23,772 nt of DNA, taken from NCBI GenBank assembly GCA_018221165.1, contig JAAOYD010000107.1:1-23772 (forward strand), given 5' to 3'. Below, one piece after another: positions 7,541 to 23,772 of the stretch (positions are counted from its first letter, which is position 1; each line of letters begins with the position of its first letter). The translations under genes were made by a program, and so were the position numbers. Below the pieces are notes generated by a model. That model ran no database searches and was not told the DNA's origin. It was given only the letters and a program-made list of their open reading frames with translations. The DNA is from Candidatus Woesearchaeota archaeon. Lineage in GTDB: Archaea; Nanobdellota; Nanobdellia; Woesearchaeales; UBA525.

Positions 7541-7574
7541 TGTTTTTCTTCGTCGACAAAACCCAGCACAAACC

Positions 7575-10044: not shown

Positions 10045-11058
10045 ATGAAAAAGATCCTGATGATTATTGCTGCGCTCGCAGCGATTATGACACTGAGTCT
10101 CGCCGCAGTCGCGTTCGAGAATCATGTCCGCTGGAACAACCAGCTAAACGAATGCGTCTATTTCTTTGAGGACGATGGTACCAGCGTGAGCTGCTACGTG
10201 CCTGAAGAATACTGCGAAGGCAAGACCAGCAAGGACCTCAACAAGGATGCCGATACGAGCACGTGCTACTACATCCCTCGGAGCCAGCAGGACGACATGG
10301 TGAGCGGTGTATGCGAGGAGTTCGTCGAAGGCGACCTTATCGTACTCCAGTATGACGGCCAGGATCCCGATCTCGATGAACTCACTTACACTTTCGGTGC
10401 ACCCTTCGACACGAACCAGCGCTGGCAAACCGTTCGCGGCGATGCGGGCACCTATGATGTTAAGGTTACTGTTACAGATGGTCAATTCAGCGACCAAGCG
10501 AGCGTGTGCTTTACCATCCTAGAAGCAAACCATCCTCCTGTCTTGAGTGTGTCAAGTATCACAGTCAAGGAAGGCCAAATCGTGAAGCTCAAGCCGACCT
10601 GCTCTGACGAAGACGGCGACGCTGTCAAGATAGAGTACAACGGTTGGATGACCAAGAGCTCCAAAGAGCTCTCGTTCGAAGACGCGGGCGTGTACAGCGT
10701 GACTGTGAAATGCACAGACACTGATGGCGAGTTCGACAGCAAGACCATTCAGGTCACTGTTGAAGATGTCGACCGAGATCCGCTTGTGAGCGGAGCACGC
10801 GATGTCACTGTCAGCGAGACAGAGACTGTGAAGCTTACGTCGACATGCACCGACCCTGATGGCACGGAAACATCCATGACCTACAGCGGCGACATGACGT
10901 CCGCCTCTTGGAAGACCGGCTACGAAGACTCAGGTGTGTACAGCGTGACCATCACGTGCGAGGATGGCACTGGCCGAACAACGAGCCAGACCGTCAGCGT
11001 CACCGTCGAGGAGCGCAACAGGCCGCCCACCATCACCGCGATGGTTGTGCGAGGCTGA
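10045..11058 (+). CDS. Secreted protein with Cys-rich N-terminal region and three tandem Ig-like (cadherin/He_PIG/PKD-type) domains
   Basis: 337 aa. Signal/anchor MKKILMIIAALAAIMTLSLAAVA. There are three ~80-aa repeats (about 10294-10539, 10540-10782, 10783-11030). Each has C.D.DGD/..TY...., a (D/E)(A/S)G(T/V)Y.V.V.(C/V)TD core, and an N/D-x-P(P) boundary. The repeat is visible in the DNA as GGYGTGTACAGCGTGAC at ~10686 and ~10933. SD AGGGGTGA lies 8 nt before the ATG. Confidence 0.7.
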   Translation: MKKILMIIAALAAIMTLSLAAVAFENHVRWNNQLNECVYFFEDDGTSVSCYVPEEYCEGKTSKDLNKDADTSTCYYIPRSQQDDMVSGVCEEFVEGDLIVLQYDGQDPDLDELTYTFGAPFDTNQRWQTVRGDAGTYDVKVTVTDGQFSDQASVCFTILEANHPPVLSVSSITVKEGQIVKLKPTCSDEDGDAVKIEYNGWMTKSSKELSFEDAGVYSVTVKCTDTDGEFDSKTIQVTVEDVDRDPLVSGARDVTVSETETVKLTSTCTDPDGTETSMTYSGDMTSASWKTGYEDSGVYSVTITCEDGTGRTTSQTVSVTVEERNRPPTITAMVVRG

Positions 11059-12481: not shown

Positions 12482-13774
12482 ATGAAACCAGCTCTGGGCC
12501 AGCACATCAGCTTCGCCTATAAAGGTAAGGCGCTCGAAGGTGTCATTCTCAACAAAGAGAAAGGCAAGCTTGTCGTCAAGCTCGATAGTGGCTACAACAT
12601 CAGCGTTGCTCCTGATGAAATGAAGAACATCAAGGAACTCAAGGTGGAAGCGAAGATGAAAGTACCGCGCTTGCCGAAGAAGCCGAAAGATGGCTTGCCG
12701 AAAGTCGCGCTTCTTCATACTGGCGGCACAATCGCGAGCAGAGTGGATTACGAGACTGGTGCGGTCATCGCCCAATACACTGCTGAGGAAGTGCTTGGCC
12801 TCTATCCTGAACTACTGGACATTGCAGATATTAAGAGCGAACTCGTGAGCAACATGCAAAGCGAGATGATGCGCTTCGCGCATTGGAACATGCTCGCGAA
12901 AGCCGTCGAGCAGGCGGTGAAGGACGGTGCCAAAGGTGTTATCGTCACGCATGGCACTGACATCCTCCACATGACTGCTGCAGCATTAAGTTTCGCGCTC
13001 AAGGACATCACAGTTCCTGTTCTCGTCGTTGGCAGTCAACGCAGCAGCGACCGTCCGAGTAGCGATGCAGTCACCAATCTGCTCTGCGCCACTACGTTCA
13101 TCGCGAAAGAGAAATTCACAGGCGTTGCCCTCTGCATGCATGAAGGCATTGAGAAAGATGATTGTGTCATCCTGCCGGCGTGTCGCTCCAGAAAGATGCA
13201 CACGTCGCGTCGCGACGCGTTCAAGCCAATCAATGATACTCCTTATGCTTGCATTACCTATCCAAAGCTCAAAGTGGAACGCCTGCGTAACTATCCCAAA
13301 GTCCCGGATAGCAAACTTGAAGTCAAGCTGTTCAACGAGAAGCTCAAGATTGGTCTGCTGCATATTCATCCGCAGATGTACGCGGAAGAATTCCTTGCGT
13401 ATGCGAAGTTCGACGGGCTTGTTTTGGAGCTCTTGGGCATCGGCCATGTGCCAACCATGGCGACTGATGCGCACAATAAAGAGCACACGAAAATTCTTGA
13501 TGCGATTACATCGCTTGCGAAAAAGCTGCCTATCGTCGCGTCTCCACAGACAATCTATGGTCGTGTCAACATGAATGTGTACTCGCCCGGAAGACAGCTT
13601 CTTGAGGCTGGCGTCTTAGGACAAGGGCTTGATCTCACGCCCGAGACAGCATTTGTCAAGCTCGCCTGGCTGCTCAGCAACCATGATAAGAAAGAAGTGC
13701 GGCAGCTGTATAGCGAGAATTTGCGCGGCGAGCTTGTGGCTCGCAGCGATGAAGAAGGATTTTCCTCCGAATGA
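12482..13774 (+). CDS. gatD: Glutamyl-tRNA(Gln) amidotransferase subunit D
   Basis: 430 aa. It has the GatD-specific N-terminal domain followed by an asparaginase-type body, with LLHTGGTIAS and VTHGTDILHMTAAAL motifs. Confidence 0.95.
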   Translation: MKPALGQHISFAYKGKALEGVILNKEKGKLVVKLDSGYNISVAPDEMKNIKELKVEAKMKVPRLPKKPKDGLPKVALLHTGGTIASRVDYETGAVIAQYTAEEVLGLYPELLDIADIKSELVSNMQSEMMRFAHWNMLAKAVEQAVKDGAKGVIVTHGTDILHMTAAALSFALKDITVPVLVVGSQRSSDRPSSDAVTNLLCATTFIAKEKFTGVALCMHEGIEKDDCVILPACRSRKMHTSRRDAFKPINDTPYACITYPKLKVERLRNYPKVPDSKLEVKLFNEKLKIGLLHIHPQMYAEEFLAYAKFDGLVLELLGIGHVPTMATDAHNKEHTKILDAITSLAKKLPIVASPQTIYGRVNMNVYSPGRQLLEAGVLGQGLDLTPETAFVKLAWLLSNHDKKEVRQLYSENLRGELVARSDEEGFSSE

Positions 13775-13816
13775 GGGAAATCCTCCGAACGAAGTGAGAA
13801 AGGATATGAATAAGGT

Positions 13817-14260
13817 TTATTTCTTCTTAGCAGTCTTTTTCTTAGCCGGAGCCTTCTGCTCAGCAGTAACCTTTGGCATAGGGATAGGTGACGGCAGTCC
13901 GATGTCGCGCGCCATAATTAAGGCTTGCACGTTTGCACGCTCGAGAATGTGGTTGAGAATTGGCGGCATGAGTTCCTTGGGCAGGTGCTTCTCTTTCTTC
14001 CAGGACTCCAAAATCTTTTCGGCCGCTTTGGTATCTTCGAGCAAGATGACGTCGCCTTCGAATGCGATGTTCCCGATTTCCGGATCGTAGATTGTCTGGA
14101 AGCCAAAATGGACACGCACGCCCTTCTTACCAGTCGCCATGTTCAGGTTGGCGTCCTTAACGTCTTTGATGACGACGTTGTTGTTAATCTTGACGTTGCC
14201 GCGCGCAGCTGCTTTCTTCTCGGCGCTGATGCTTGTGAAACTGAAACCGACGATAGCCAT
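13817..14260 (-). CDS. Conserved-looking hypothetical protein with Lys-rich C-terminal tail (possible SecB-like fold; very tentative)
   Basis: 147 aa. Strong SD AGGTGAT (14266-14272) with a 5-nt spacer, and TATA CTTTATATA (14306-14314). The order of beta-rich N-half then helix ...PPILNHILERANVQALIMARDIGLPSPIPMP is vaguely like SecB's ...PNILFPYARE...G.P.L.L.P. Confidence 0.55.
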   Translation of the reverse strand: MAIVGFSFTSISAEKKAAARGNVKINNNVVIKDVKDANLNMATGKKGVRVHFGFQTIYDPEIGNIAFEGDVILLEDTKAAEKILESWKKEKHLPKELMPPILNHILERANVQALIMARDIGLPSPIPMPKVTAEQKAPAKKKTAKKK

Positions 14261-14305
14261 TGAATATCACCTGTACTTGTAGTGGAGGCTCAGAATCGAG
14301 AGGCG

Positions 14306-14314
14306 TATATAAAG
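14306..14314 (-). promoter_or_regulatory. TATA box (minus strand CTTTATATA) for the 14260 gene
   Basis: Immediately follows the PLD stop codon (14316-14318) and lies ~50 nt upstream of ATG 14260, with an SD in between. Confidence 0.45.
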
Positions 14315-14315
14315 G

Positions 14316-15245
14316 TTATGGGTTTGTGAGGAGCCAGAGACGGTCGAATTCTGCCCGGAAACGGGCTGTTAAGGCTTGATTATGGATAATCAGCACATTC
14401 TCGTCATTCCTCGTGTTACCGTTCTTTGTGGGGTTGTAGCTGCCCATGATGACAGTCTTGCCATCGATAATGAATACTTTGTGATGCATGGTTTGTGGAT
14501 TTGAATCAAAGCGCACATCAAGTCCTGCGGCAAGGAGCCTTTGGTATTCAGAGTATGCGTTTTGTTGCCGTTTCTCAAATACTCCCTGTACAAGAATCCC
14601 GTCCTTGGCTTTCTCAATGAGTAGTTTTCCGATGGGGTCGCTGGTGAAGCTGAAGGTCATGAAGTGGATAGTAGTAATGGCCTTCCCTAATTCCTCTAAA
14701 ACCTGTTTTTCACAGTCATCTTCGGGACAGAAATAGTTCTCGATGAGAAATCCTTCACCATCCTCATGTATTTTATGTTTTATTTTTTTATTTCTTGTTT
14801 GTTGTTCTTTCTTCCCCTTTAACTCCTCAAACTCGTCAAGATAATTCTGCGCAATAACTTCCCCTTCAATAATTAAGATGCCATTGTCGTTCTTGAACAA
14901 TCCGTTCGCGGTCGGATTCGTACTTCCAGTAATTACTATTCTCTCGTCGAGGATGCAAAACTTGTCATGCATCAGTCCGCCGTGCGATGCTTTGACACTG
15001 ATGCCAAAACCATCATAGTTCTCTTTGAAAACCAACACCTCTACGTTTTTGTGTTTGAGAAGTTGCTCGAGTGGATCATAATCGAGGTCGTAGAACGCAC
15101 ACTTGATTTCTTCAGAATTGTTAATCGCGGTGAGCAGTCCTTGTTTGCAGTCATCAACTTGACAAAAGAGCAAGGTTATCTCACCTGTTTGTGTTGGAAT
15201 GGCGCAACAGGACAGGAAGAGTAAGGTGAGTAGCAGGATTCTCAT
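14316..15245 (-). CDS. Secreted/lipid-anchored phospholipase D superfamily protein with two HKD motifs (phospholipase or Nuc-like nuclease)
   Basis: 309 aa. Signal peptide MRILLLTLLFLSCC with a lipobox-like LSC. HKD-1 is HDKFCILDERIVITGSTNPTANG and HKD-2 is HHKVFIIDGKTVIMGSYNPTKNG. Confidence 0.8.
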   Translation of the reverse strand: MRILLLTLLFLSCCAIPTQTGEITLLFCQVDDCKQGLLTAINNSEEIKCAFYDLDYDPLEQLLKHKNVEVLVFKENYDGFGISVKASHGGLMHDKFCILDERIVITGSTNPTANGLFKNDNGILIIEGEVIAQNYLDEFEELKGKKEQQTRNKKIKHKIHEDGEGFLIENYFCPEDDCEKQVLEELGKAITTIHFMTFSFTSDPIGKLLIEKAKDGILVQGVFEKRQQNAYSEYQRLLAAGLDVRFDSNPQTMHHKVFIIDGKTVIMGSYNPTKNGNTRNDENVLIIHNQALTARFRAEFDRLWLLTNP

Positions 15246-15284
15246 GAAGATTGAGGTGAAAGGCGAGCTTCATAAGCCCTTACG

Positions 15285-15800
15285 TCATTTTTCCGTTTGT
15301 TCTTTGAGCCAGGCGAAGCTTTTCCGCAACGCCGATTTAGTCTGTGGCTGTCCTTCTTGCAAAGTCTCAAGCATCTCTCGCACATCATCCTGAGGGGTGA
15401 GTGTTTTTCCAGCAATTTTGTGCCGTTTTGCGAACTCCAGAATCATAGCTTCAGGAACAGTAGTGAGTAAGGGAACGAATTTGTTCTCTTCATCCTTGTC
15501 TTCCAAGAAATTCCTCAATTCCCTGACCAGTTCGTTTTCAAGAGAAGAAGGCAGAAAGACATTCTTCCGTTTCTTGGTGTTTGCTGGTACGAGGCTTATC
15601 TTAATTCTGCCTTGGAAGATATTCTTTAGGAGACTCTTGAGGACCTTGACCTCCACCGTCTTGGTATCAATCAAAAAAAGCTCGTCATAATCGACCCGTT
15701 GAGCTCGAATCTCCTTGCGGAGCCGTTTTTCGATGCCGCCGACAGCCATACATCCAGGTCCGAGCACTGATTTTAATGCTTGCCGCTTAAAAGTATTCAT
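15285..15800 (-). CDS. Hypothetical protein; C-terminal half resembles a PP-loop ATPase (TilS/NcsA-type) but lacks the SGGxDS loop
   Basis: I prefer the start MNTFKRQ at 15800 (TATA 15826-15833, ~29 nt upstream). The track's 227-aa version adds a 56-aa Arg/Pro-rich extension across a GC-rich spacer. KFVPLLTTVPEAMILEFAKRHKIAG...DDVREMLETLQEGQPQTKSALRKSF resembles RPLL.V.E.EI..YA...gI...L..LE...P....S.... Confidence 0.45.
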   Translation of the reverse strand: MNTFKRQALKSVLGPGCMAVGGIEKRLRKEIRAQRVDYDELFLIDTKTVEVKVLKSLLKNIFQGRIKISLVPANTKKRKNVFLPSSLENELVRELRNFLEDKDEENKFVPLLTTVPEAMILEFAKRHKIAGKTLTPQDDVREMLETLQEGQPQTKSALRKSFAWLKEQTEK

Positions 15801-15825
15801 TTTAAAATGGTGACAATACACAAAG

Positions 15826-15833
15826 TATAAAAA
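15826..15833. promoter_or_regulatory. TATA box (TATAAAAA / TTTTTATA), orientation ambiguous
   Basis: On the minus strand it is 29 nt from ATG 15800. On the plus strand it has a purine-rich BRE-like ACAAAG upstream and faces a 160-nt GC-rich spacer ending in T7. Confidence 0.4.
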
Positions 15834-16000
15834 GAAAACTTCATTCTCGAGTGATAACGCCTGAGGGCGATATGGGGGGGAAGCGCACACGCGCTTAACT
15901 ATGCTTCTCACCTCTTTTTCCCGGGAAGGTCTCTTGCTTTGCGCAGGGGGCCTTCTTGGGTTTCTCACTGCTCAAGAAGACTCTTCTATTTTTTTGTGAC

Positions 16001-16483
16001 CTATCCGAAGTAGCCACGTTCGCCCTGGAGGGGCTGCTCTTTCTTCCAGTCAGAATGCAATTTAGAGATAATCGTCCGTAGCCAGTCCTTTTTGGCTTCC
16101 CAACGTGGAATAGCGCTTTTCAGAAATCTTCGATACGCTTCCTCGTTTGCTTCGATATCTGCCATGGTGAATTGCCTGAGGACGCTCATGAGCTCACGAT
16201 AGGACTTCGCGACCTGCTCAATCTCGGCTTCAGTGAAGAAACTACACTCATTCATCGCCGCTAATCCTGAATCTGGCTGAAGTAGCTCCTCGAGTAGCTG
16301 AGCGAAGCCTGCCACACGATCTTTCACTTTCTTCGCCATTTCTCGGGCAATAGAGGGTGTTTCTTCGTTGATTGTCAGAAGTTCGAACTCTTCCATCAGC
16401 GATTTCGTCTGTTCAAAGCCGCAAGCGAGCAATTCCTTCTCCAAATCCTCTTTAAGGGTCGGAAGCTTCTTCTCTTTGTCCAT
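16001..16483 (-). CDS. Hypothetical alpha-helical acidic protein, divergent from the RHH cassette
   Basis: 160 aa. TATA (minus ATATAAA, 16509-16515) lies 26 nt upstream of ATG 16483, giving leaderless geometry. I recognise no motif. Confidence 0.55.
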   Translation of the reverse strand: MDKEKKLPTLKEDLEKELLACGFEQTKSLMEEFELLTINEETPSIAREMAKKVKDRVAGFAQLLEELLQPDSGLAAMNECSFFTEAEIEQVAKSYRELMSVLRQFTMADIEANEEAYRRFLKSAIPRWEAKKDWLRTIISKLHSDWKKEQPLQGERGYFG

Positions 16484-16508
16484 AGTGTTCTCAGGGTCCC
16501 CAGGGCTG

Positions 16509-16515
16509 TTTATAT
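16509..16515 (-). promoter_or_regulatory. TATA-like box for the 16483 gene
   Basis: ATATAAA on the minus strand, 26-32 nt from the ATG. Confidence 0.4.
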
Positions 16516-16546
16516 CCCTTTCGTGCAGCGAAAACGAGTCGAAACA

Positions 16547-16554
16547 TTTAAATA
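16547..16554 (+). promoter_or_regulatory. TATA box (TTTAAATA) with purine-rich BRE-like GAAACA upstream; candidate promoter of the RHH-ATPase cassette
   Basis: Only strong plus-strand TATA candidate in the 191-nt divergent spacer (a weaker CTAAATGTAATA lies at ~16615-16630). The predicted TSS at ~16575-16580 falls inside the iteron array. Confidence 0.4.
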
Positions 16555-16560
16555 GCAGAT

Positions 16561-16593
16561 ATTACAGGTGTAATACAGGCAAATTACAAAAAC
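16561..16593 (+). promoter_or_regulatory. Three tandem 11-bp iterons (ATTACAGGTGT / AATACAGGCAA / ATTACAAAAAC); candidate RHH operator
   Basis: Read directly from the sequence. The periodicity of 11 bp is one helical turn. The first two units also form the inverted repeat ATTACA-GG-TGTAAT (16561-16574). Further copies are TGTAATAC at 16622-16629 (inverted) and TTTACAGAAAAC at 16647-16658. Confidence 0.45.
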
Positions 16594-16674
16594 TCCTCAA
16601 AAGCGCATAGAAACGACTAAATGTAATACGAGTGTCTTACGCTTGTTTTACAGAAAACGACAGTGACGCGCGCG

Positions 16675-16821
16675 ATGGTAGCGACGACAGCAACAGTGAA
16701 CATCAGGCTTCCGAAGGAAGTCTCCGACATTCTAGATACTCTTGTCGAGCGTAAGCTCTTTGCCAACCGCAGCGAAGCTATCCGTGAATTCTGCAGGGAC
16801 TATCTCGAGGTGAGGCGCTGA
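16675..16821 (+). CDS. Ribbon-helix-helix (CopG/Arc/MetJ-type) DNA-binding protein, 48 aa
   Basis: Below the track size cut-off. Hand translation gives MVATTATVNIRLPKEVSDILDTLVERKLFANRSEAIREFCRDYLEVRR*. This is the classic RHH pattern: beta strand VNIRLP, helix, then (S/N)RSEAIREa..yL. The stop TGA shares its A with the next ATG (16821). Confidence 0.7.
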   Translation: MVATTATVNIRLPKEVSDILDTLVERKLFANRSEAIREFCRDYLEVRR

Positions 16822-17096
16822 TGCCTGCTGAGCAAATCGTCACGGTTCGCATGCCTGCTAGCCTCGTCGAAGCGCTCAAAGCCAGAATAGCACCAGATCA
16901 TTACTCTGACCTCTCGGAACAGGTGCGTAGCATCGTCAGGAAAGGCTGCCTCCACTACGTTAACCCAGTTACGAGTGAAATTAAGGAACTAAAAACCCAA
17001 CTCAAAGCGGAGCTCATGCAAGAGTCAGGAGATGACCGCGCGAAAGCCCTCATTGACGAGCTCAAGAATCTGCTCAAGGGAGGTGACGCGTCATGA
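16821..17096 (+). CDS. Second RHH-like protein with C-terminal coiled-coil extension, 91 aa
   Basis: IVTVRMPASLVEALKARIAPDHYSDLSEQVRSIVRKG fits a beta-strand/helix/helix RHH core, followed by the amphipathic helix EIKELKTQLKAELMQE...LIDELKNLLKGG. GAGGTGA lies 8 nt upstream, and its stop overlaps the next start (ATGA). Confidence 0.6.
   Translation: MPAEQIVTVRMPASLVEALKARIAPDHYSDLSEQVRSIVRKGCLHYVNPVTSEIKELKTQLKAELMQESGDDRAKALIDELKNLLKGGDAS
17079..17086 (+). promoter_or_regulatory. Shine-Dalgarno GGAGGTGA embedded in the last codons of the upstream gene
   Basis: 6-nt spacer to ATG 17093. The context GGAGGTGACGCgtCATGA is nearly identical to that at 20039-20056. Confidence 0.7.
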
Positions 17097-20056
17097 ATCG
17101 CATCATCTCTTTCATCATTATCTTCACACTCTTTTTCGCTTCCCCGGTACTGGCAAGTATCGACCTTGTCACACCATTAGCTGACGCGGCCACGAACGAC
17201 CAGAACGCAACCTTTGAGTACTATCCGAGTATACAAGGTATCGAACGCTGCACTCTTGATCTCGAGGGAGAGGAATTCCTTGACGTGACTATTGATAACG
17301 AGGAGTTCAACACTTTTACAGTTGTCAATATCGCTCCCGGCAACTACGATTGGAGCGTCAGTTGCGAGAACAGCACAGCAACAGAGCAATCCGGACAACG
17401 AACGCTGCTCATCGATTGGACACCACCAGAACTCACTATTATCGAACCGGTCGAGAACGCTACCATTGAAGGCTCTATTATCAAGGTGACTGCGAGCGAC
17501 GACAATGACGATGAGGTTGCCTGCAGTGCTTATCACGGTGCGACCTTCCTTGCGAGCTTTACTATCGAGGATGGTGGACTCAAGAACGTTGACCTTGGAC
17601 TTGGCACAGGCACCTATACTATCACTGTTACTTGTTTCGACGAAGCGACGAACGGCGCAATCAAGCAACACACTTTCACGGTCGTTGAGCCCATCCCCAA
17701 CCTATTCCTTGAGCTCTCAACGAACAAGCAGCTCTATTCCCTTGGTGAATCCATAGCGCTCACCATTGACACGCTTAATGAGGCGAGTGTGAGCATTGAA
17801 GTCTGTCCGGACACACAGGGATTCGTCAAATGCTTTACCCCCCTCATCGATGACGGATTTCCCCAGACAGTAGTACTTCCATACACAAATAGCACGGGGA
17901 CCTACCTCATCGATGGCACTGCCGCCCTCGGTGACCAAACAGTCTATTACACGATTACTTACACTGTCGAGAACACTATGACAGTTGCAATAGCATCTGA
18001 TGTGGCGCCAGCATACAACCGTGAGATAACGCTCACCGCGACGGCAAACGGTGCCCTTGGCGAAGTCACATATGTCTGGACACTACATGATGATACTGAA
18101 GTGAACGGAAGTAAAATTGACATCACTTATAGTGATGCTGGCAGCTACACAGAAACAGTTGTCGCTACTGACGAGAGCGGGAACTCAGTTGAAGCTCAAT
18201 TCACTGCGACTATTGAGACTGTGTACGACATTGAAGTCCACGTCAAGGACGCAACGACGAATGAAGTACTCGGCGGTGCGACTGTCCAGTTTGAGGACAC
18301 AGAAGATCATTCATTCACAGCAGATACTGACACTAATGGCAAGACATACTTCTCGCTCGAGAAAGGAGATTACGATCTCTTCGTTTCGAAAATAGGCTAT
18401 GAGTACAACCTGCAGGAAGTCAAGCTCGACAAACAGCAAACCTTCGTCATCTCGCTCACTTCCACTGGACAGTATAAGCCACTTGTTACGATAGTCTCAC
18501 CAGGACCGGATGCTACCACAAGCATTCCGACAATCATCAGCTTCACGGTCAATCACGACCAAGAGACTGTTTGCACACTCTCATACATCTCTGAAGGAAG
18601 TCAATGGCTCGAGCAATCAGGCATCGTCACGGTTCCAGCGGACGGTGAAGGTGCTTTCGACCTTACTGCCCTCGAAGAGAAGACCTATAGATTCAAGATT
18701 GGGTGTGAAGACGCACAGGGTTTCCTCGGTGAGAGTGAAGAGCGTAGTTTCACTGTCGACGAAGATGCAGAAGATGAGACCGAGCTTGTTACTGATGCAT
18801 GGGGTAATGACCCGCTAGATATCATTGACCGTGCATACGGAGCATATGACTCATTCAACGCAGACCAGCGGACACTCGCTGACCTCCTCTCTTGGGAAGA
18901 CTCAGTGAAACAACAGAAGCGCGCTATCGAACGCGCGTTGCGCGACAGAGATGCAGTACGGTTCAGGAATGATCTTACAGATGCTGAGAAGCAGACGAAG
19001 ACAAAAGAATTTGACCGCACCATCACTGAAGCACAACAGACGACTCCATTTGACCTTGCAGTTCTAGAGAAAAAGAAGCGGGTCGAGAACCTCAACAGTG
19101 CTGACATCGCAGCCATCGTCGAAAGTATCATTGAATCTAAGGAATACACACTCACTGCTAAACAAGCGCAGGGATGGCTTGATGAGCTCCAGCAAGGGTT
19201 CACGAAAGAGACGACTGTCTTTCGTGGGAAGATACTCATGGCAGATGGTACTGAGCGAGACATAAGTCTCATCACATACACATTCACGTACAAGAACCCT
19301 GACGCGCTCGAGGACCACACGCTCTACGAACTCATCCCCGAGCAAATGGCTGCAGATGCAAAGAGTGTTATCACTTTGAACAAGCACGTGGTCACTAAGA
19401 CTCAACCACCGGTGCTTGAATTCCAGCCCGAGAAGACAATCACGTATTATGTTGAGGTAGACGTGCCAATCAGCACACTCCTCGGAGCCCAGACAGTCTT
19501 GCTCAAGAAACTCACCGTGTCAGACATGGAAGAAGTGACAGGAAAGGCATTCCTGTCCAACTCAACGAGATTTGACTGGAAGCTCAGTCTTGCGCTGACG
19601 ATACTGCTCACGATTCTCATCGCTGCTGCTCGTCGCTTCGATGCGGTTAGACACTTCAAGTATCTTTTCTATGCTGAATCGAAGAAGAAGTCACTCCACG
19701 CAATCCAGACCATCATCAATGACGGTCACTCACACCTTGACGCGGGCGACCTTGAACGCGCGATGATGCGATACAAGGAAGCGAAGCTCTCCTACGAACA
19801 CTTGAGTGCGTATGCGCAGAACGAGGTTCTCCCCGACATACTCCGTCTTCACGAATTCCTCGACGACGCCTACTTCCGGAAACTACTGAACCGTATCGGT
19901 GAAGCGATTGATGCGGGCAGGATGGCTGACGCGATTGAGGACTACGCTCGACTCGAAGGAACCTTCGAACACCTTCCCGCTGAGAAGCAGAATGATCTCA
20001 TCATGGTCGTAAATGAGATTTCGCGCAAGCTCCACCTTGGAGGTGACGCTGCATGA
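17093..20056 (+). CDS. 987-aa type-I membrane surface protein: signal peptide, multiple Ig-like/PKD-like/CarboxypepD_reg-like modules, coiled coil, one C-proximal TM helix, 138-aa helical cytosolic tail
   Basis: Signal peptide MNRIISFIIIFTLFFASPVLASID. Cys-paired Ig-like modules with D-W-T-P-P-E-L-T-I boundaries. PKD-like module ~17978-18217 (ITLTATANG...VTYVWTL.D....G..I.ITYSDAGSYTETVVATDESGN). CarboxypepD_reg-like module ~18230-18457 (VHVKDATTNEVLGGATVQFED...TDTNGKTYFSLEKGDYDLFVSKIGY). TM WKLSLALTILLTILIAAARRF at 19577-19639. Confidence 0.85.
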   Translation: MNRIISFIIIFTLFFASPVLASIDLVTPLADAATNDQNATFEYYPSIQGIERCTLDLEGEEFLDVTIDNEEFNTFTVVNIAPGNYDWSVSCENSTATEQSGQRTLLIDWTPPELTIIEPVENATIEGSIIKVTASDDNDDEVACSAYHGATFLASFTIEDGGLKNVDLGLGTGTYTITVTCFDEATNGAIKQHTFTVVEPIPNLFLELSTNKQLYSLGESIALTIDTLNEASVSIEVCPDTQGFVKCFTPLIDDGFPQTVVLPYTNSTGTYLIDGTAALGDQTVYYTITYTVENTMTVAIASDVAPAYNREITLTATANGALGEVTYVWTLHDDTEVNGSKIDITYSDAGSYTETVVATDESGNSVEAQFTATIETVYDIEVHVKDATTNEVLGGATVQFEDTEDHSFTADTDTNGKTYFSLEKGDYDLFVSKIGYEYNLQEVKLDKQQTFVISLTSTGQYKPLVTIVSPGPDATTSIPTIISFTVNHDQETVCTLSYISEGSQWLEQSGIVTVPADGEGAFDLTALEEKTYRFKIGCEDAQGFLGESEERSFTVDEDAEDETELVTDAWGNDPLDIIDRAYGAYDSFNADQRTLADLLSWEDSVKQQKRAIERALRDRDAVRFRNDLTDAEKQTKTKEFDRTITEAQQTTPFDLAVLEKKKRVENLNSADIAAIVESIIESKEYTLTAKQAQGWLDELQQGFTKETTVFRGKILMADGTERDISLITYTFTYKNPDALEDHTLYELIPEQMAADAKSVITLNKHVVTKTQPPVLEFQPEKTITYYVEVDVPISTLLGAQTVLLKKLTVSDMEEVTGKAFLSNSTRFDWKLSLALTILLTILIAAARRFDAVRHFKYLFYAESKKKSLHAIQTIINDGHSHLDAGDLERAMMRYKEAKLSYEHLSAYAQNEVLPDILRLHEFLDDAYFRKLLNRIGEAIDAGRMADAIEDYARLEGTFEHLPAEKQNDLIMVVNEISRKLHLGGDAA
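19577..19639 (+). other. Transmembrane helix of the 987-aa protein (WKLSLALTILLTILIAAARRF)
   Basis: 21 hydrophobic residues followed by RRF..R.FK, consistent with the positive-inside rule and a cytosolic tail. Confidence 0.7.
20039..20046 (+). promoter_or_regulatory. Shine-Dalgarno GGAGGTGA embedded in the last codons of the 987-aa gene
   Basis: 6-nt spacer to ATG 20053. Context is GGAGGTGACGCtgCATGA. Confidence 0.7.
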
Positions 20057-23000
20057 GGACGATAACTCGACAACGCCGCGCTGCCTTCTGGCTTGGCATT
20101 CTCCTCCTCACGATTTTCGCGATTAAAGGCCTAGTTATTGTTAGCCAGTTCATCGGCTACGCAACGAGTTCTGATGCAGAGGCAGGAACAATCACCCAAC
20201 TCATCATCCGCCATGAAGTACCAACGGAAAACTGGGCTGCGGTATTCGGTGTTGCTGTGCGCGTACCTGGTTATCTCAATCAACAGTTTGAGGATTTCAC
20301 CGCGGGTGACATGGAAGAAACTAACCTCCTCTTCGATTGCATGGAAAGCAACATAGAACATGAGGTCTTTGTGACAGAGTCTGACCCTGCACTTTTGGAC
20401 ATCTCGAACATGTTCTCTATCACTGTTGCGGAGCTTGATGCCTATTATGGACGTGATTCTAATGACTTTGATAGCGCGACGAACACCTTCACGCAGGCTA
20501 TTAGTTTCCAATACGGTTCAACGACAGTGAATACTGTTGGTACTGTAGCCTACAAGCTCGGCGAATCACCCCCGACGACTTTTAGGATAGCGGCGGCGCA
20601 ACTCTCTGATGGCTCACCGGTGTATGTGGCGATAGTAACGAACTTCACTGATGGGTATAATGGGCGACTCTACAACTACCAGCTCCTCCTTCCTGCTTCG
20701 ATAAATGTGACGACTCGCTATTACTTTTGGACTGACCCTAATGATATCTGCCCTGAAGGTGAAGGGCAAGAGCCCAACAAGGGTGTCGTATTCGGCAAGG
20801 TCACGACAACAACTGGCATTCCTATTCCTGGCGTCATCGTTGAGGTGGCTGGCGTTACGAACATCACCGACATTAATGGAAACTATACTATCAGAACTCA
20901 AGAAGGAACCCACAATATCTTTGCAATCAAGACAGGGTTCGATGTCTACAAGAACAACGTTACAGTAATCGCGAACAACAAAACGCGTCATGACATCATC
21001 CTCGAAGAGACAGTCATCCCGAACGACAACACAGGTATCGGCCCTGGACAGGACAACCCGGGGGATGATGTTGGGCCTGCACAACAGGAAGGAATCGGTC
21101 CAGGGCAGGATGTTGGTCCTGGTGAGGCACCGCTCGTCCCATTCGTGCAGCAGCCGAAAGTCATCGAAGGCAAGGATTTCATAATTAGCCTTACAGAGTT
21201 GAACAGAAAATTGCGCCTCGGCCAGTTCGTGCAGGACCGAATCTACATCTACAATTTCCGGAAGACCCCTGTGACAATCACCTTAGCGGTTAACGGCACG
21301 AATATCAGCCGTCTTATCACCGTTGATAAGAACGAGATTGTCGTCGACCCGAACGGGAAGGGTGAGTTCGTGCTCACAATCTTTGGTGTTGGTAGCACGG
21401 GCATCTTCAACGGCACGATTGAGTTGGATGGTGACATCAACGCTTCTATTCCTGTGCGTATAGATATCTTGCCGCGCGAACAACTTCCTATAGAGGCACT
21501 TCATATAGAGGTGGAGACTGCAGAGAAGCGATACTACCCGAATGACCTGGTCAGAGTGAAGACTGACTTACGTAACATGCTCATTGATCAGCAATATCCT
21601 GTTAGGCTCTTCTTTACAGTGCAGAACCCTGAAGGCGATGAGACTATCTGGAGCTACGAGACGAACGTGCATATCAAGACTGCATTCAGTCTTATCAAGA
21701 GCTTCAAGCTACAGAACAGCGTCAAGAGTGGTGATTACATCCTCCGTGTTAGCGCTACATATTTGGGATTGAGCAGCGGGACGAGCACGATATTCCATGT
21801 CGCTGTGCCGTTCTGGCAACGTAGTCTCTTCGGTTTGAAGTATTGGCTCTGGTTCCTTATCCTAGCGTTCATCGCAGCTGGCATCGGCGCGTTCTTCTAT
21901 ATCAGGAAGAAGATTGAGGAGAAGAAGAAATATCACCTCAAGGTCGACTACGACGAGCTGCCGAAACCAGGACCGCGCAGCATTTATGTCGGGAAGATTG
22001 CTGAGACTGACAAGACGACCTATTTCAATCTCGAGAACTTCAAGACGCACACTATCGTCGCTGGCTCGACAGGTGGTGGTAAATCGGTGAGTGCCCAAGT
22101 TATCATTGAGGAAGCTCTTGACAAGGATATTGCGGTCGTCGTCTTTGACCCGACGGCACAATGGACTGGTATGCTCCGGCCGTGCAAGGACAAGACTATG
22201 CTCGCACTTTACCCACTCTATGGTATGAAGAAGACTGACGCGAAGGCTTTCCCAGGAAACATCCGACAGATTAACAACGCGCGTGAGAAGATTGACATCA
22301 GGAAGTATGCGAAACCAGGCGAGATTCAGGTGTTCTGCGGGCACAAGCTCGATCCGAAGGACATGGACATCATGGTCGCGAATGCAATCAGGGAAATTTT
22401 CCACGCGAGCTTCCCCGAAAACAAGCTCCTCAAGATATTCTTCGTCTTTGATGAGGTGCACCGACTCCTGCCGAAATTCGGTGGCAGTGGCGATGGCTTC
22501 CTCCAAATCGAGCGTGGTTGTCGTGAATTCCGTAAGTGGGGTCTTGGCATGATGCTAATCTCACAGGTCCTGAGCGACTTCGTCGGTACAATCAAGGCGA
22601 ACATCAACACAGAAATCCAGATGCGAACCCGCGACGAAGGTGACCTCGAACGTATCAGGCAGAAGTACGGCGAGGATGTGTTGCGCAGTCTGGTGAAAGC
22701 AACAGTTGGTACAGGTATGGTGGAGAATCCCGCCTATAACAGAGGTCAGCCGTACTTCGTTGGTTTCAAACCACTCAAGCACAGCGTCGAGAGGTTGACT
22801 GATGAGGAGATTGAGCAGTACAACGAGTATAACGATAGGATTGACAACCTCTACTACAGTCTCGAACAGCTTGAAGAGGCGAAGATAGATGTTTTCGATC
22901 TCAAGCTTGAACTCAAGCTCGCCCTCGATAAAGTAAAAACTGGAAATTTCAACATGGTCAAGATATATTTGGAAGGCCTCGAGCCGCGCATTGACAAGCA

Positions 23001-23772
23001 ATGGCAAAAACTCGGGAGGAAGCCGAAGGTGATGGAACGCGAGCTCGTCGACATGAGCGAGATCCAGGAAGATCTGAAGAAGGCACAGGCCGATCGCGAT
23101 AAGGCTATCGCCGCTGAGGAGAAGGAAGGCGCTGACAAAAAGGGCGCAGAGGAAAAGAAGGAATGGGGTTGGAAGGACGATGTTTCACCCGACAAGATTC
23201 TCAACCTGAAGAACGGCATGATTGTCATCAACCTCGCGTCACTCTACGATGAGGTCAGTGCGATGAAAGATGCGGACCTGCCGAACGAATTCCTACCAGA
23301 GCCACCAGAGCCAGAAGAGGGCGAGGAACCGAAGCAGCCAATCAACACCTTTGCAGAATGGGTAGTGAACGCGACTGGTGACACCAAGCTTGGCTATGCA
23401 CTTGCGGCCTGCACGACGAAGGAAGAGATGATAGCGTTGCTAGATAAGAAGAAGGAAGGTCAAGAGATTCCTGATGCGAAGCCACCAGCGTGGTTTGTCA
23501 AGCAGGCTGGCGCCGCTGTTGTCGAGGAGAAAGAAGCTGCAGAAGAGAAGAAAGAGGAAGTGAAGGAAGCGGCACCTGCGGAAGAGCAGAAAGAAGATGT
23601 GACACCACAACCTGCAGAAACTTCTGCAGCTGAACAAACAACACCTGAGATTCCAACACCTGAGACTCCTGAAGCACAAGCTCCAGAACAGCCTGCACAA
23701 CCTGCTCCAGTCCAACCTGAACAACCAAAACAAGAAACTCCCACTACAGAAACTCCCACTACAGAAACTCCC
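20053..23772 (+). CDS. Bitopic membrane protein of more than 1240 aa: TM1 - ~580-aa ectodomain - TM2 - cytosolic HerA/FtsK/VirB4-type (DUF87-like) P-loop ATPase - coiled coil - small helical domain - acidic Pro/Glu/Thr-rich tail. 3' end lies beyond the window
   Basis: Absent from the ORF track because there is no stop in the window. I translated the frame by hand: 1240 sense codons from ATG 20053, whose start overlaps the upstream stop (ATGA). The N-terminus is MRTITRQRRAAFWLGILLLTIFAIKGLVIV. Walker A is KTHTIVAGSTGGGKSV. Also present are VVVFDPTAQW, Walker B KIFFVFDEVHRLLP, REFRKWGLGMMLISQVLSDF and NTEIQMRTRDEGD. All minus-strand track ORFs between 20131 and 23759 are shadows of this frame. 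Confidence 0.85.
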   Translation, partial: MRTITRQRRAAFWLGILLLTIFAIKGLVIVSQFIGYATSSDAEAGTITQLIIRHEVPTENWAAVFGVAVRVPGYLNQQFEDFTAGDMEETNLLFDCMESNIEHEVFVTESDPALLDISNMFSITVAELDAYYGRDSNDFDSATNTFTQAISFQYGSTTVNTVGTVAYKLGESPPTTFRIAAAQLSDGSPVYVAIVTNFTDGYNGRLYNYQLLLPASINVTTRYYFWTDPNDICPEGEGQEPNKGVVFGKVTTTTGIPIPGVIVEVAGVTNITDINGNYTIRTQEGTHNIFAIKTGFDVYKNNVTVIANNKTRHDIILEETVIPNDNTGIGPGQDNPGDDVGPAQQEGIGPGQDVGPGEAPLVPFVQQPKVIEGKDFIISLTELNRKLRLGQFVQDRIYIYNFRKTPVTITLAVNGTNISRLITVDKNEIVVDPNGKGEFVLTIFGVGSTGIFNGTIELDGDINASIPVRIDILPREQLPIEALHIEVETAEKRYYPNDLVRVKTDLRNMLIDQQYPVRLFFTVQNPEGDETIWSYETNVHIKTAFSLIKSFKLQNSVKSGDYILRVSATYLGLSSGTSTIFHVAVPFWQRSLFGLKYWLWFLILAFIAAGIGAFFYIRKKIEEKKKYHLKVDYDELPKPGPRSIYVGKIAETDKTTYFNLENFKTHTIVAGSTGGGKSVSAQVIIEEALDKDIAVVVFDPTAQWTGMLRPCKDKTMLALYPLYGMKKTDAKAFPGNIRQINNAREKIDIRKYAKPGEIQVFCGHKLDPKDMDIMVANAIREIFHASFPENKLLKIFFVFDEVHRLLPKFGGSGDGFLQIERGCREFRKWGLGMMLISQVLSDFVGTIKANINTEIQMRTRDEGDLERIRQKYGEDVLRSLVKATVGTGMVENPAYNRGQPYFVGFKPLKHSVERLTDEEIEQYNEYNDRIDNLYYSLEQLEEAKIDVFDLKLELKLALDKVKTGNFNMVKIYLEGLEPRIDKQWQKLGRKPKVMERELVDMSEIQEDLKKAQADRDKAIAAEEKEGADKKGAEEKKEWGWKDDVSPDKILNLKNGMIVINLASLYDEVSAMKDADLPNEFLPEPPEPEEGEEPKQPINTFAEWVVNATGDTKLGYALAACTTKEEMIALLDKKKEGQEIPDAKPPAWFVKQAGAAVVEEKEAAEEKKEEVKEAAPAEEQKEDVTPQPAETSAAEQTTPEIPTPETPEAQAPEQPAQPAPVQPEQPKQETPTTETPTTETP
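20083..20145 (+). other. TM1 / signal anchor of the ATPase protein
   Basis: AFWLGILLLTIFAIKGLVIVS preceded by RQRR, which predicts an N-in orientation. Confidence 0.65.
20782..21003 (+). other. CarboxypepD_reg-like beta-sandwich module in the ectodomain
   Basis: GVVFGKVTTTTGIPIPGVIVEVAGVTNITDINGNYTIRTQEGTHNIFAIKTGFDVYKNNVTVIANNKTRHDIIL matches the G.V.D..G.P..GA.V.......T.TD.NG.Y.l..l..G.Y.l...k.GY pattern. Confidence 0.6.
21034..21126 (+). repeat. Gly/Pro-rich linker with internal duplication (GIGPGQDN...GIGPGQDVGPG)
   Basis: Read from codons 21034-21126. Confidence 0.7.
21841..21903 (+). other. TM2 of the ATPase protein (YWLWFLILAFIAAGIGAFFYI)
   Basis: Hydrophobic 21-mer followed by RKKIEEKKK, which places the ATPase in the cytosol. 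Confidence 0.7.
21976..22785 (+). other. HerA/FtsK-type ATPase domain (Walker A 22063-22086, Walker B 22438-22455)
   Basis: Motif order and spacing: H-T-hhh-G-S-T-G-x-G-K-S, then hhhDP...W/Y, then hhhh-D-E-h-H, then RK.G.G..hhSQ...D, then NT.I..R. This is as in DUF87/HerA-like translocases. Confidence 0.7.
23734..23772 (+). repeat. 15-nt tandem repeat GAAACTCCCACTACA (ETPTT), 2.6 copies, truncated by the window end
   Basis: Read directly; it lies in frame in the C-terminal low-complexity tail. Confidence 0.85.

Follow-up and report, generated by a model that had tools for sequence, protein, structure and literature searches.

Gene cassette and chromosomal setting

The window (the whole stretch of DNA analysed, a contig of exactly 23,772 nt) ends in four consecutive plus-strand open reading frames, the last of which encodes an ATPase protein listed as partial in NCBI. 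These genes and a divergent neighbour are as follows.

16001–16483, minus strand: divergent gene for a 160-aa soluble protein, with homologues at the equivalent position in 21 loci
16675–16821, plus strand: rhh1, 48-aa ribbon-helix-helix (RHH) protein (Pfam RHH_1, E 2.6e-5, above cut-off)
16821–17096, plus strand: rhh2, 91 aa, a predicted N-terminal RHH paralogue (about residues 3–48) with a C-terminal helical extension (hhalign)
17093–20056, plus strand: partner surface protein, 987 aa (Pfam, Kyte–Doolittle hydropathy, relatives)
20053 to beyond 23772, plus strand: ATPase protein, 1240 codons without a stop and open at the window edge

The stop/start overlaps described in an earlier, sequence-only reading of this DNA were recovered at each junction, namely TGATG (1 nt) between rhh1 and rhh2 and ATGA (4 nt) at both rhh2/partner and partner/ATPase. 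So was its GAGGTGA motif before every internal start (16807–16813, 17080–17086 and 20040–20046), which lies 6–7 nt 5′ of the ATG and occurs nine times in the window against 3.2 expected. Overlaps were the majority state at related loci, with scripted counts of 38/49, 46/53 and 25/48 for the three junctions, the script having chosen the start codon closest to the upstream stop and thus favoured small gaps. The RHH1–RHH2–partner–ATPase order, whose conservation had been proposed as a check, is kept across dozens of species (about 50–60 species-level genomes of Woesearchaeota and Pacearchaeota), with rhh1 present in 59 and rhh2 in 58 of 86 loci. The four genes are a conserved, co-oriented and mostly translationally coupled cassette.

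A search for downstream partners, also suggested at the outset, revealed two more genes 3′ of the ATPase gene in relatives, D1 and D2, both with soluble products, D2 being a long coiled-coil protein. The order RHH1–RHH2–partner–ATPase–(D1–D2) was found in most of 80 species-level loci. The operon extends beyond the window, and the cassette seen there is incomplete. Both the conserved four-gene order and the downstream D1 and D2 genes of relatives appear to be new. The divergent 160-aa gene adjoins the operon in closer relatives and its product matched no family above cut-offs; whether it is part of the system is uncertain.

Recurrent neighbours of the operon encode ADK, TruD, GatD/E and CDC48, and the GC content is level along the whole window. 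The cassette sits in a chromosomal housekeeping setting rather than on a plasmid or within an integrated element. The idea that the genes belong to a mobile element such as an integrated conjugative plasmid, with the RHH proteins as relaxosome accessories and the ATPase as a coupling-protein-like enzyme, is close to refuted. It could draw on the known RHH stimulators of coupling ATPases (TrwA for TrwB, TraM for TraD) and on weak NCBIfam matches of the ATPase to TraD, TraC and TraB and of RHH2 to TprA (E 4e-6 to 5e-3). However, these scores all fall far under the family cut-offs, neither an integrase, relaxase or replication gene nor a tRNA-flanked island turned up, and the same housekeeping neighbours and flat GC stand against it.

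Phased repeats and the RHH proteins

Three elements were located between the divergent gene and rhh1.

16540–16554, plus strand: promoter-like element CGAAACATTTAAATA, BRE/TATA-like (TTTAAATA at 16547–16554), read from the sequence
16563–16588, plus strand: repeat array 1 (TACAGGTGTAATACAGGCAAATTACA), with three TACA cores set exactly 11 nt apart, from spacing counts
16627–16652, plus strand: repeat array 2, TACG-N7-TACG-N7-TACA, just 5′ of the rhh1 start codon

A WTTAWAWA element precedes rhh1 in 50/53 related loci, and CGAAACATTTAAATA would act as a promoter element. Across 54 loci, pairs of TAC[AG] were spaced by 11 nt in 121 cases, by 22 nt in 70 and by 33 nt in 25, where about 0.9 would be expected, and at least two phased units were present in 50 of 53 loci. 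The window contains only two triple arrays, arrays 1 and 2, both in the promoter region; 1.2 Mb of related loci contain 64 triple arrays, every one of them beside rhh1, and no 11-nt arrays were found at loci of giant family members that are without RHH genes. Since arrays and RHH genes co-occur, we infer that the RHH proteins bind the arrays, which are thus probable RHH operators; array 1 would be a putative operator overlapping the expected transcription start. These operon-specific 11-nt arrays appear to be new.

RHH1, with invariant residues R11, R32, E34, R37 and R41, resembles the N-terminal domains of NikR and CdrS and is the probable repressor of the operon. Two RHH genes had been claimed: the first is confirmed by its Pfam match, while RHH2 is RHH-like by profile only, its family alignment matching that of RHH1 by hhalign (probability 96.4%, E 1.4e-9) and, weakly, NikR RHH domains. 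Given the operon-specific arrays, the initial choice between regulators and DNA-handling factors can be refined, the RHH proteins being most simply read as autoregulators, although they may also handle DNA.

Surface partner and ATPase protein

The two large products were divided as follows, in part by comparison with the giant nanohaloarchaeal surface proteins known as SPEARE proteins.

17093–17155, plus strand: partner signal-like N-terminus (hydrophobic segment, residues 4–22, Kyte–Doolittle)
19571–19636, plus strand: predicted partner transmembrane (TM) helix (hydrophobic segment, residues 827–845, Kyte–Doolittle)
19640–20053, plus strand: predicted 138-aa helical cytosolic tail of the partner, after the TM helix
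20053–21846, plus strand: ATPase protein, N-terminal part (Pfam, hydropathy, family alignments)
20086–20142, plus strand: ATPase N-terminal hydrophobic anchor or signal (residues 12–30, Kyte–Doolittle)
21847–21903, plus strand: second ATPase TM helix (residues 599–617, Kyte–Doolittle; aligns with the SPEARE TM helix)
21970–22782, plus strand: predicted cytosolic HerA-clade P-loop ATPase core (Pfam, PDB sequence matches, AF2, Foldseek)
22795–23052, plus strand: conserved C-terminal helical domain (…DVFDLKLELKLALDKVKTGNFNMVKIYLEGL…; model helices 306–414, SPEARE C-terminal alignment)
23170–23427, plus strand: DUF5752-like module, residues ~1040–1125 (BLAST matches linking ATPase C-termini to D1 proteins)

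All four hydrophobic segments agree with those originally proposed. In the partner, Pfam recognised PKD (residues 307–371), CarboxypepD_reg (380–455) and Big_13 (483–556) domains, and a Pfam search gave no family match for residues 560–987. A sequence search found no relative with a solved structure, and the partner shows no similarity to ectodomains within the ATPase family. The partner evolves much faster than the ATPase protein (47% vs 73% identity to the closest relative).

The ectodomain of the ATPase protein comprises a conserved N-terminal domain (residues 31–240), a CarboxypepD_reg domain (246–317, Pfam), a Gly/Pro-rich linker and two membrane-proximal Ig-like modules (~371–598) common to the short forms and SPEARE proteins. 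The suggested N-in topology is consistent with an arginine-rich N-terminus and an RKKIEEKKK run directly after the second helix. A cleaved signal peptide is an equally good reading of residues 12–30, in which case each ring would contain a different number of membrane helices.

The HerA/FtsK-type motifs read from the sequence (AGSTGGGKS, FVFDEVH and RKWGLGMMLISQ) are all present. Specifically, the core carries an intact catalytic set, with Walker A GSTGGGKS, Walker B FDEVH, REFRKWG and ISQ; all 28 homologues compared keep the Walker A lysine, the D-E of Walker B and the SQ unchanged. The best Pfam match was the DUF87/HerA central domain (644–744, 42.7 bits) and every PDB sequence match was to HerA. 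An AF2 model (pLDDT 81.6, pTM 0.83), submitted to the Foldseek check that had been recommended, retrieved HerA 4d2i first (4e-11), followed by FtsK (1e-8) and TcpA (8e-8). By sequence and model, HerA-clade is the best-scoring class, and a membrane-anchored HerA/FtsK-superfamily ATPase encoded beside adhesin-like surface parts is supported; no well-characterised family was matched in the same domain context.

In SPEARE proteins the C-terminal helical domain has its counterpart in the ‘coiled coil’. Precomputed annotations assign PF19027 to many homologues, and it also matches D1, which shares the DUF5752-like module with the ATPase C-terminus; a segment matching this module was found again in 52 family members. 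A Pro/Glu/Thr-rich low-complexity stretch follows it and runs past the window end.

SPEARE kinship and possible mechanism

In a BLASTP comparison with the Ca. Nanohaloarchaeum antarcticus SPEARE protein, whose sequence is given in the SI of Hamm et al. 2019 (PMC6642349), ATPase residues 401–981 aligned to its last 596 residues with 37% identity and 58% positives over 596 columns (E 1e-125). This homology covers the two Ig-like modules, the TM helix, the ATPase and the helical end. The earlier statement that known archaeal machineries offer no match to this architecture therefore fails, the module being the C-terminal one of SPEARE-type DPANN surface proteins; of that interpretation, the conserved coupled cassette stands and its uniqueness does not. 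The family was already described, Hamm et al. having remarked on similar Woesearchaeota sequences (PMC6642349), and the window ATPase is a compact member by alignment, 4–7 times shorter and lacking two kinds of domain described as typical of SPEARE proteins, LamG and protease. Throughout the family the ATPase always follows a TM helix that ends an ectodomain of ~250 to >5600 aa, which in giant members bears subtilase, LamG, beta-helix and NEW3 domains. At some loci, though not consistently, giant CARDB surface proteins are encoded within a few genes on the downstream side; ScpA adjoins one giant family member, and several paralogues are possible per genome.

SPEARE proteins are expressed, and host contact and transport have been proposed for them (PMC6642349, PMC10266531, PMC11001535), but the published roles are hypotheses at odds with one another, DNA degradation or uptake versus effector secretion. 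The cytosolic part was first annotated as a type III restriction-like domain (PMC6642349); Reva et al. 2023 reinterpreted it as a VirB4/TraG-like ATPase with a coiled coil after it (PMC10266531). A defence or restriction module, either an anti-phage HerA-type ATPase or a type III restriction-like degrader of incoming DNA, would suit that first annotation, the PADLOC matches (mad8, E 1.5e-16, and several anti-phage HerA models) and the weak ResIII matches precomputed for many family members. We consider it very improbable: the PADLOC matches are confined to the ATPase core, with none for the other four proteins; Sir2, DUF4297, NurA-like, nuclease and methylase partners are all absent; Reva et al. 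found no endonuclease domain (PMC10266531); and stable housekeeping synteny with a membrane/ectodomain build is atypical of defence islands.

Export of proteins, including effector injection, or a motor deploying surface proteins was proposed for SPEARE proteins by Reva et al. 2023 (PMC10266531). Here a ring ATPase would unfold proteins or push them out through the membrane, like EssC/EccC (type VII) or VirB4/VirD4 (type IV), with the ectodomains and partner forming a conduit (‘straw’) to the host. The TM-then-ATPase layout recalls coupling proteins (TrwB_AAD_bind, 22.7 bits against a cut-off of 20.5), TcpA is among the Foldseek matches, the giant CARDB proteins would fit, and accessory parts with coiled coils or TPRs could serve as adaptors for substrates. 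Yet the top sequence and fold matches are to DNA-translocating HerA/FtsK and not to EssC/VirB4, the TrwB_AAD_bind match is limited to the P-loop (residues 664–705), the VirB4 N-terminal domain, a VirB6-like channel and a recognisable substrate family are lacking, and the giant neighbours are inconsistent. This explanation is unlikely.

A basic role in the cell envelope or in division would also be consistent with such wide conservation amid housekeeping genes. In such a machine, for instance an anchored FtsK/SpoIIIE-like pump that clears or segregates chromosomal DNA during division, or a surface-layer organiser, the RHH proteins would serve as DNA adaptors or in cell-cycle regulation, with the ectodomains linking the ring to the S-layer. 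The cytosolic ATPase domain is 58–87% identical across Woesearchaeota and Pacearchaeota, FtsK is a clear structural relative, ScpA lies beside one giant member, and RHH1 matches CdrS, a haloarchaeal cell-division regulator (E 1.3e-6). Nevertheless, the CdrS score is 28 bits (cut-off 100) and that for FtsK_SpoIIIE 20 (cut-off 24), a Pfam search of the ATPase protein found no FtsK gamma DNA-recognition domain, the possible paralogues argue otherwise, and ectodomains of 250 to >5600 aa with lectin and protease modules look host-facing and fast-evolving, unlike a division apparatus. We regard this function as distinctly improbable.

Overall, we slightly favour the cassette as the core of an autoregulated chromosomal operon for an envelope-spanning hexameric motor with adhesin-like surface parts. 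Most likely the RHH pair would repress the operon by binding both arrays, which lie between its TATA box and first start codon. The central protein would join its surface ectodomain, through a membrane helix just before the ATPase, to the conserved helical end, and would be co-produced with the separately encoded type-I adhesin-like partner. By analogy with HerA, FtsK and VirB4 relatives, we infer a hexameric ring beneath the membrane, with a putative pore. The ATPase transmembrane helices, the membrane-proximal Ig modules and the partner would span the envelope, the variable outer domains would grip another cell, and ATP hydrolysis would power the passage of a polymer through the ring and over the membrane where the cells touch.

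Woesearchaeota are tiny, probably symbiotic DPANN archaea, and our committed but tentative guess for the polymer is DNA, which a symbiont poor in nucleotides would take up; exported protein is a more doubtful second choice. No nuclease, relaxase, polytopic channel protein or pilin was found in the operon, which therefore holds no direct pointer to DNA. Lastly, the partner tail, D1 and D2 may contact the ATPase; D2 is also encoded directly 3′ of giant family members in distant lineages.

Organisation of the cassette and its surroundings

The four plus-strand ORFs from which the sequence-only reading had built a translationally coupled cassette were recovered directly from the sequence, downstream of a promoter region:

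16540-16554, + strand: BRE/TATA-like promoter element, ahead of the arrays
16563-16588, + strand: array 1, TACA/TACG cores exactly 11 nt apart
16627-16652, + strand: array 2, TACA/TACG cores exactly 11 nt apart
16675-16821, + strand: rhh1, first ribbon-helix-helix (RHH) gene
16821-17096, + strand: rhh2, second RHH gene
17093-20056, + strand: partner, a 987-aa adhesin-like surface protein
20053 to beyond 23772, + strand: ATPase gene, encoding a membrane-anchored protein with a cytosolic HerA-clade P-loop domain

The junctions read TGATG, ATGA and ATGA, and GAGGTGA stands 6-7 nt ahead of every internal ATG of the cassette, as had been described; no such site precedes the operon's first gene (16675). 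This motif occurs nine times in the window against 3.2 expected, a count reached in 0 of 100 shuffles, and three of the nine copies lie just 5′ of the internal start codons of the cassette. The ATPase gene is open at the window end, and its NCBI product is a partial DUF87 protein of Candidatus Woesearchaeota archaeon.

The proposed character of the gene products was largely borne out. RHH1 scored above the Pfam RHH_1 threshold, which places it in the RHH fold by sequence, and RHH2 was recognised by profile-profile comparison as a divergent RHH1 paralogue (family-versus-family hhalign probability 96.4%, E 1.4e-9); a single-sequence PDB search with RHH2 gave chance matches only. Pfam found the expected PKD, CarboxypepD_reg and Big_13 modules in the partner, and CarboxypepD_reg and DUF87/HerA in the ATPase protein. 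The complementary topologies agree with hydropathy: in the partner it marks residues 4-22 and 827-845 as hydrophobic, and in the ATPase protein residues 12-30 and 599-617, with positive-inside flanks. The distribution of charges is consistent with both topologies, although residues 12-30 could alternatively be a signal peptide that is cleaved off. No PDB entry was matched by sequence when the query was the ATPase ectodomain, the partner's C-terminal half or D2 (the second gene product encoded downstream of the ATPase gene in relatives).

Membership of a mobile element is poorly supported by the genomic setting. The rest of the window carries ordinary archaeal housekeeping genes (GatE, GatD, CDC48, Ham1, CDP-archaeol synthase, CDP-alcohol phosphatidyltransferase, phosphatidylserine decarboxylase and a PLD-like protein), its GC content is level throughout, and no plasmid or integrated-element signs were found in it. 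Adenylate kinase, TruD, GatD/E and CDC48 recur near related loci. A viral origin was likewise rejected, as PHROGs gave only generic FtsK-like or terminase-like P-loop matches.

Three further features of the window were recorded. A divergently oriented gene (16001-16483, - strand) encodes a 160-aa soluble protein of no family, with a TATA-like TTTATAT ~26-32 nt upstream of its start codon; in 21 loci a homologue occupies the same place, flanked by adenylate kinase and the operon, and the product may or may not be part of the system. Positions 885-1979 and 3967-5677 hold a lipid head-group cluster of LPG_synthase_TM, CDP-archaeol synthase, CDP-alcohol phosphatidyltransferase and phosphatidylserine decarboxylase, which suggests at least head-group remodelling and is notable because DPANN archaea are usually said to be without lipid synthesis. 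Lastly, 10045-11058 (+ strand) encodes a small adhesin-like surface protein of 337 aa with Big_9, cadherin-like and PKD domains, unlinked to the operon.

The ATPase domain and its relation to SPEARE proteins

An AF2 model of residues 612-1026 of the ATPase protein (pLDDT 81.6, pTM 0.83) consists of a RecA-like core followed by four long helices. Foldseek searches of the PDB ranked Sulfolobus HerA (4d2i), HerA-NurA and anti-phage HerA first (4e-11 to 1e-9), FtsK next (1e-8) and the pCW3 coupling protein TcpA thereafter (8e-8), and sequence searches concurred on HerA as the nearest class. PF01935, the DUF87/HerA central P-loop domain, scored 42.7 bits against a cut-off of 23.2, HerA_C 21.6 against 22, and the NCBIfam HerA models 22-28 bits against cut-offs of 800-970. 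The likeness to FtsK is real in the modelled fold and second to that of HerA; PF01580 (FtsK_SpoIIIE) covers just the P-loop and, at 20 bits, stays below its cut-off of 24, and Pfam gave no match to the FtsK gamma (winged-helix) DNA-recognition domain in the ATPase protein. The P-loop motifs initially described as HerA/FtsK/VirB4-type are intact, with HerA nearest and FtsK next. None of 28 homologues, one of them 44% identical, departs from the Walker A lysine, the Walker B D-E, the REFRKWG arginines or the SQ, so the ATPase is probably active.

HerA itself, the best relative of the core in both sequence and fold, shares the intact Walker A, Walker B and downstream motifs, but is a soluble protein with an N-terminal HAS-barrel. 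The window protein has no HAS-barrel and is membrane-anchored, with ~25 residues separating the end of its TM helix from the P-loop domain's first strand. No NurA, Mre11, Rad50 or Sir2 was found in the window or related loci, and the window ATPase has no DUF4297 partner.

The sequence-only reading had held that the architecture matches no known archaeal machinery. This did not survive comparison with SPEARE, the giant surface proteins of nanohaloarchaea: in BLASTP against the Ca. Nha. antarcticus sequence printed in the SI of Hamm 2019 (PMC6642349), residues 401-981 of the ATPase protein align with the last 596 SPEARE residues at 37% identity and E 1e-125. The alignment takes in both membrane-proximal Ig-like modules, the TM, the ATPase and the helical end. 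Because the SPEARE C-terminal module aligns at this level, we classify the window ATPase protein, by sequence, as a compact SPEARE-family member, and the system as a variant of a kind described before rather than a categorically new one. Hamm 2019 (PMC6642349) described the SPEARE proteins of Nanohaloarchaeota as very long, with at least one laminin-G domain, a serine protease and other adhesion domains. That study assigned a type III restriction domain to their conserved portion inside the cell, and pointed to similar sequences in Woesearchaeota, Aenigmarchaeota, Micrarchaeota and Altiarchaeales. The intracellular part was re-read by Reva 2023 (PMC10266531) as a VirB4/TraG-like ATPase with a coiled coil, a second VirB4-like ATPase was reported downstream in nanohaloarchaeal loci, and a secretion “straw” was proposed. 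Our comparison corrects two annotations: the cytosolic domain is nearest HerA, rather than VirB4/TraG or a restriction enzyme, and the ATPase family extends beyond giant proteins.

At E < 1e-30, an exhaustive HMMER search recovered 375 cluster representatives. All family members have the ATPase domain at the C-terminal end, behind a region that varies in length from ~250 to over 5600 residues. Giants combine an N-terminal anchor with one TM directly ahead of the ATPase, and subtilase, LamG, beta-helix and NEW3 domains occur in their ectodomains. SPEARE and the window protein share one plan, with a motor that is conserved inside the cell and an adhesin-like ectodomain that varies outside it, and differ in scale and composition. 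SPEARE proteins reach 4-9 kaa, as against ~1.3-1.45 kaa for window-type proteins and 0.78 kaa for short forms. SPEARE proteins lie mostly outside the cell, with a TM helix near the C-terminus and a cytoplasmic C-terminal region. Hydropathy predicts the same arrangement for the window protein, but with ~570 residues outside and at least 620 in the cytosol, so that only giants are mostly extracellular. The LamG, protease and toxin-like domains of SPEARE are absent from the window protein, in which Pfam found CarboxypepD_reg and Ig-like modules only, with no LamG or Peptidase_S8. Unlike in SPEARE, the adhesin-like partner is encoded by a separate gene; the idea that it is a split-off piece of giant ectodomains was not supported, as BLAST found no similarity.

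Several family members (P0190, P0196, P0158/P0320 from locus L087, P0162 and P0195) are extremely acidic, with a pI of 4.05-4.2 and 15-19% Asp+Glu, a composition that fits halophiles. The JGI metagenome protein P0195, at 717 aa, equals in length the “Lake Tyrrell SPEARE” listed in Hamm 2019 (PMC6642349) and may be that protein. In L087 the 2598-aa member lies beside ScpA and is followed by a 184-aa D2-like protein.

Conservation, companions and putative regulation of the operon

In Woesearchaeota/Nanoarchaeota MAGs, full-length counterparts of the ATPase protein are frequent, at 1250-1450 aa and 47-73% identity. Conservation was scanned with one genome per GTDB species, covering 80 loci of at least 114 confirmed relatives; these are labelled Woesearchaeota, Pacearchaeota or Nanoarchaeia, and the cytosolic domain is 58-87% identical in them. 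Operon contigs have also been deposited as uncultured Methanosarcinales, Saccharibacteria, Patescibacteria, Nitrospirae and Leptospiraceae (L013-L015, L018, L019, L042 and others; proteins P0113, P0249 and P0291), labels that are probably default or wrong depositor taxonomy, or mis-binning. Mapping of related loci by tblastn showed the order rhh1-rhh2-partner-ATPase to be kept wherever the flank is present. In a count of 86 loci that takes in truncated contigs and four duplicate contigs, 59 have rhh1, 58 have rhh2 and 63 have the partner. Overlaps of 1-17 nt occur at 38/49, 46/53 and 25/48 of the successive junctions, numbers that lean to small gaps because the script took the start codon nearest the upstream stop.

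Most loci extend into D1 and then D2. D1 is a soluble protein of 170-410 aa, and neither it nor D2 matches a P-loop family; relatives carry D1 and D2 in place of the second VirB4/TraG-like ATPase reported immediately downstream in nanohaloarchaeal SPEARE loci. D1 shares with the ATPase C-terminal extension a DUF5752-like module of ~70-100 aa (motif such as NDFSNWI), seen in the window at 23170-23427. Long-form ATPases have one or two copies of it in the extension, and D1 proteins carry it too (e.g. L001:14351-15202); some homologues have TPR repeats in its place, and no literature mention of DUF5752 was found. D2 is a coiled-coil protein of 350-430 aa starting MGLFxKK. Because it also directly follows the ATPase in giant members of distant lineages (L006, L087, L088, L089), D2 looks like a general companion of the ATPase family. 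In the AF2 model (pLDDT 66.7, pTM 0.32) D2 folds into three long helices, for which Foldseek gave no match of significance; an ESCRT-III/PspA-like identity, considered from the MGLFxKK start, was not supported, Vipp1 and Snf7 being matched only at E ~1.

Short-form ATPase proteins (~780 aa) retain just two membrane-proximal Ig-like modules of the ectodomain, and their operon stops after the ATPase with the RHH pair and partner still present. One locus, L055, has a short-form operon at 2481-9506 and, 3.4 kb downstream, a long-form paralogue at 12962-17125 (1387 aa, 43% identical to the window ATPase protein over the main 811-column alignment). The Walker B of this paralogue reads VYDGIH, D-G replacing D-E, so that it may be catalytically dead; the pair hints at mixed rings or a regulatory paralogue.

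The promoter arrays recur with the RHH genes. Across 54 non-redundant loci there are 121 TACA/TACG pairs spaced 11 nt apart, 70 at 22 nt and 25 at 33 nt, where ~0.9 would be expected, and the cores are strongly strand-biased (5.6 versus 1.4 per 200 nt). At least two phased units, approximately WRWMW-TACA-WW, were present in 50 of 53 loci. All 64 triple arrays in 1.2 Mb of loci adjoin rhh1, the two in the window both lying in this promoter, and no phased arrays were found at giant loci that have no RHH genes. Among the loci examined, the RHH pair and a partner encoded on its own belong to the compact operon alone, both being absent at the giant loci. As RHH dimers typically bind tandem repeats one helical turn apart and the arrays are specific to rhh1 promoters, putative RHH autoregulation is the simplest reading of the sequence pattern.

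Searches covering part of the literature found nothing on the operon structure, the D2 companion, the HerA-clade assignment or the putative operator arrays, so that all four appear undescribed, and queries pairing Woesearchaeota with DUF87, or DPANN with HerA/FtsK/membrane, returned nothing relevant.

Comparison with transport machineries and possible function

Among known machines, Ced offers the closest functional analogy for a DNA substrate, CedB and CedD being membrane-anchored HerA-clade ATPases in DNA import between contacting archaeal cells (PMC11868833). The Ced ATPases are without a large ectodomain, unlike the window protein, and the VirB4-like N-terminal domain, the polytopic CedA/CedE channel and the Ced pilin are all missing here; the operon proteins carry at most two hydrophobic segments each, which leaves no CedA-type polytopic channel. 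Membership of Ced was rejected, since NF053655 (CedD) reaches 30.5 bits where the cut-off is 600, and matches the P-loop region alone.

The coupling proteins TrwB/VirD4, TcpA and Streptomyces TraB resemble the ATPase in having TM helices followed by a cytosolic FtsK/HerA-superfamily ATPase, TcpA and FtsK being Foldseek matches, and there are precedents for RHH proteins that modulate type IV coupling-type ATPases. Their extracytoplasmic loop measures ~30 residues, however, against hundreds to thousands here, their families score at or below cut-off over the P-loop only, and a relaxase or mobile-element context is absent. The TrwB_AAD_bind match spans 42 residues of a 387-position profile. Type IV secretion/conjugation was rejected with no match to the VirB4 N-terminal domain (PF03135), AAA_10 and T4SS-DNA_transf below cut-offs, and housekeeping genes as neighbours. 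Makarova's predicted archaeal secretion systems comprise a different gene set (arCOG01314/MoxR/vWA), and the 2015 and 2019 papers are without HerA or FtsK. A role as a defence module is poorly supported, PADLOC matching the ATPase core only and none of the other proteins.

What is established at the level of sequence is a HerA-clade ATPase with intact catalytic motifs, predicted to be tethered beneath the membrane and fused to, or co-encoded with, fast-evolving adhesin-like surface domains; helical cytosolic proteins and dedicated RHH genes accompany it in the operon. In the mechanism we propose, the ATPase would form a hexameric ring, its TM helices and proximal Ig modules would span the envelope with the partner, the outer domains would bind a neighbouring cell, and ATP hydrolysis would translocate a polymer at the contact site. 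That this polymer is DNA, probably imported, is a plausible though far from assured option, favoured by analogy because most relatives (HerA, FtsK, CedB/CedD) pump DNA and because these organisms are thought to rely on others for nucleotides. Export of protein, as proposed by Reva 2023 (PMC10266531), comes second, with a lower probability. A housekeeping role in the envelope or in division is less likely still, though the wide distribution and synteny of the operon lend it some weight.

DPANN archaea make up a large share of the diversity of archaea, and their usual way of life is attachment to other cells. SPEARE proteins are the leading candidates for passing material between symbiont and host and, at 4-9 kaa, are hard to study. 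The most far-reaching reading, offered tentatively and with more doubt than confidence, is that the Woesearchaeota/Pacearchaeota operon could be a minimal, self-regulated, DPANN-specific cell-to-cell conduit: a HerA-type hexameric pump built into an adhesin, with a separate adhesin partner and D2, moving DNA or proteins between symbiont and host, unlike type IV secretion, Ced/Ted and type IV pili in composition, and with the giant SPEARE proteins as elaborations of its core.

The compact operon, widespread in Woesearchaeota and Pacearchaeota, holds the conserved core of the SPEARE family in ATPase proteins of 0.8-1.4 kaa, and adds a defined partner, a coiled-coil companion (D2) that recurs, and probable RHH regulators of its own, marked by a clear putative operator signature. 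At this size the system is amenable to structure determination, to gel shifts and to assays of ATPase activity and DNA binding, and its sequence signature can be used to find the system in metagenomes.

Some loci, but not others, encode very large CARDB/Ig-rich surface proteins, from 1250 aa to over 4000 aa in length, at a distance of two to four genes 3′ of D2 (L003:18264-23894, L004:16949-23972 and L005:14599-21622); these could be co-functioning adhesins or cargo.
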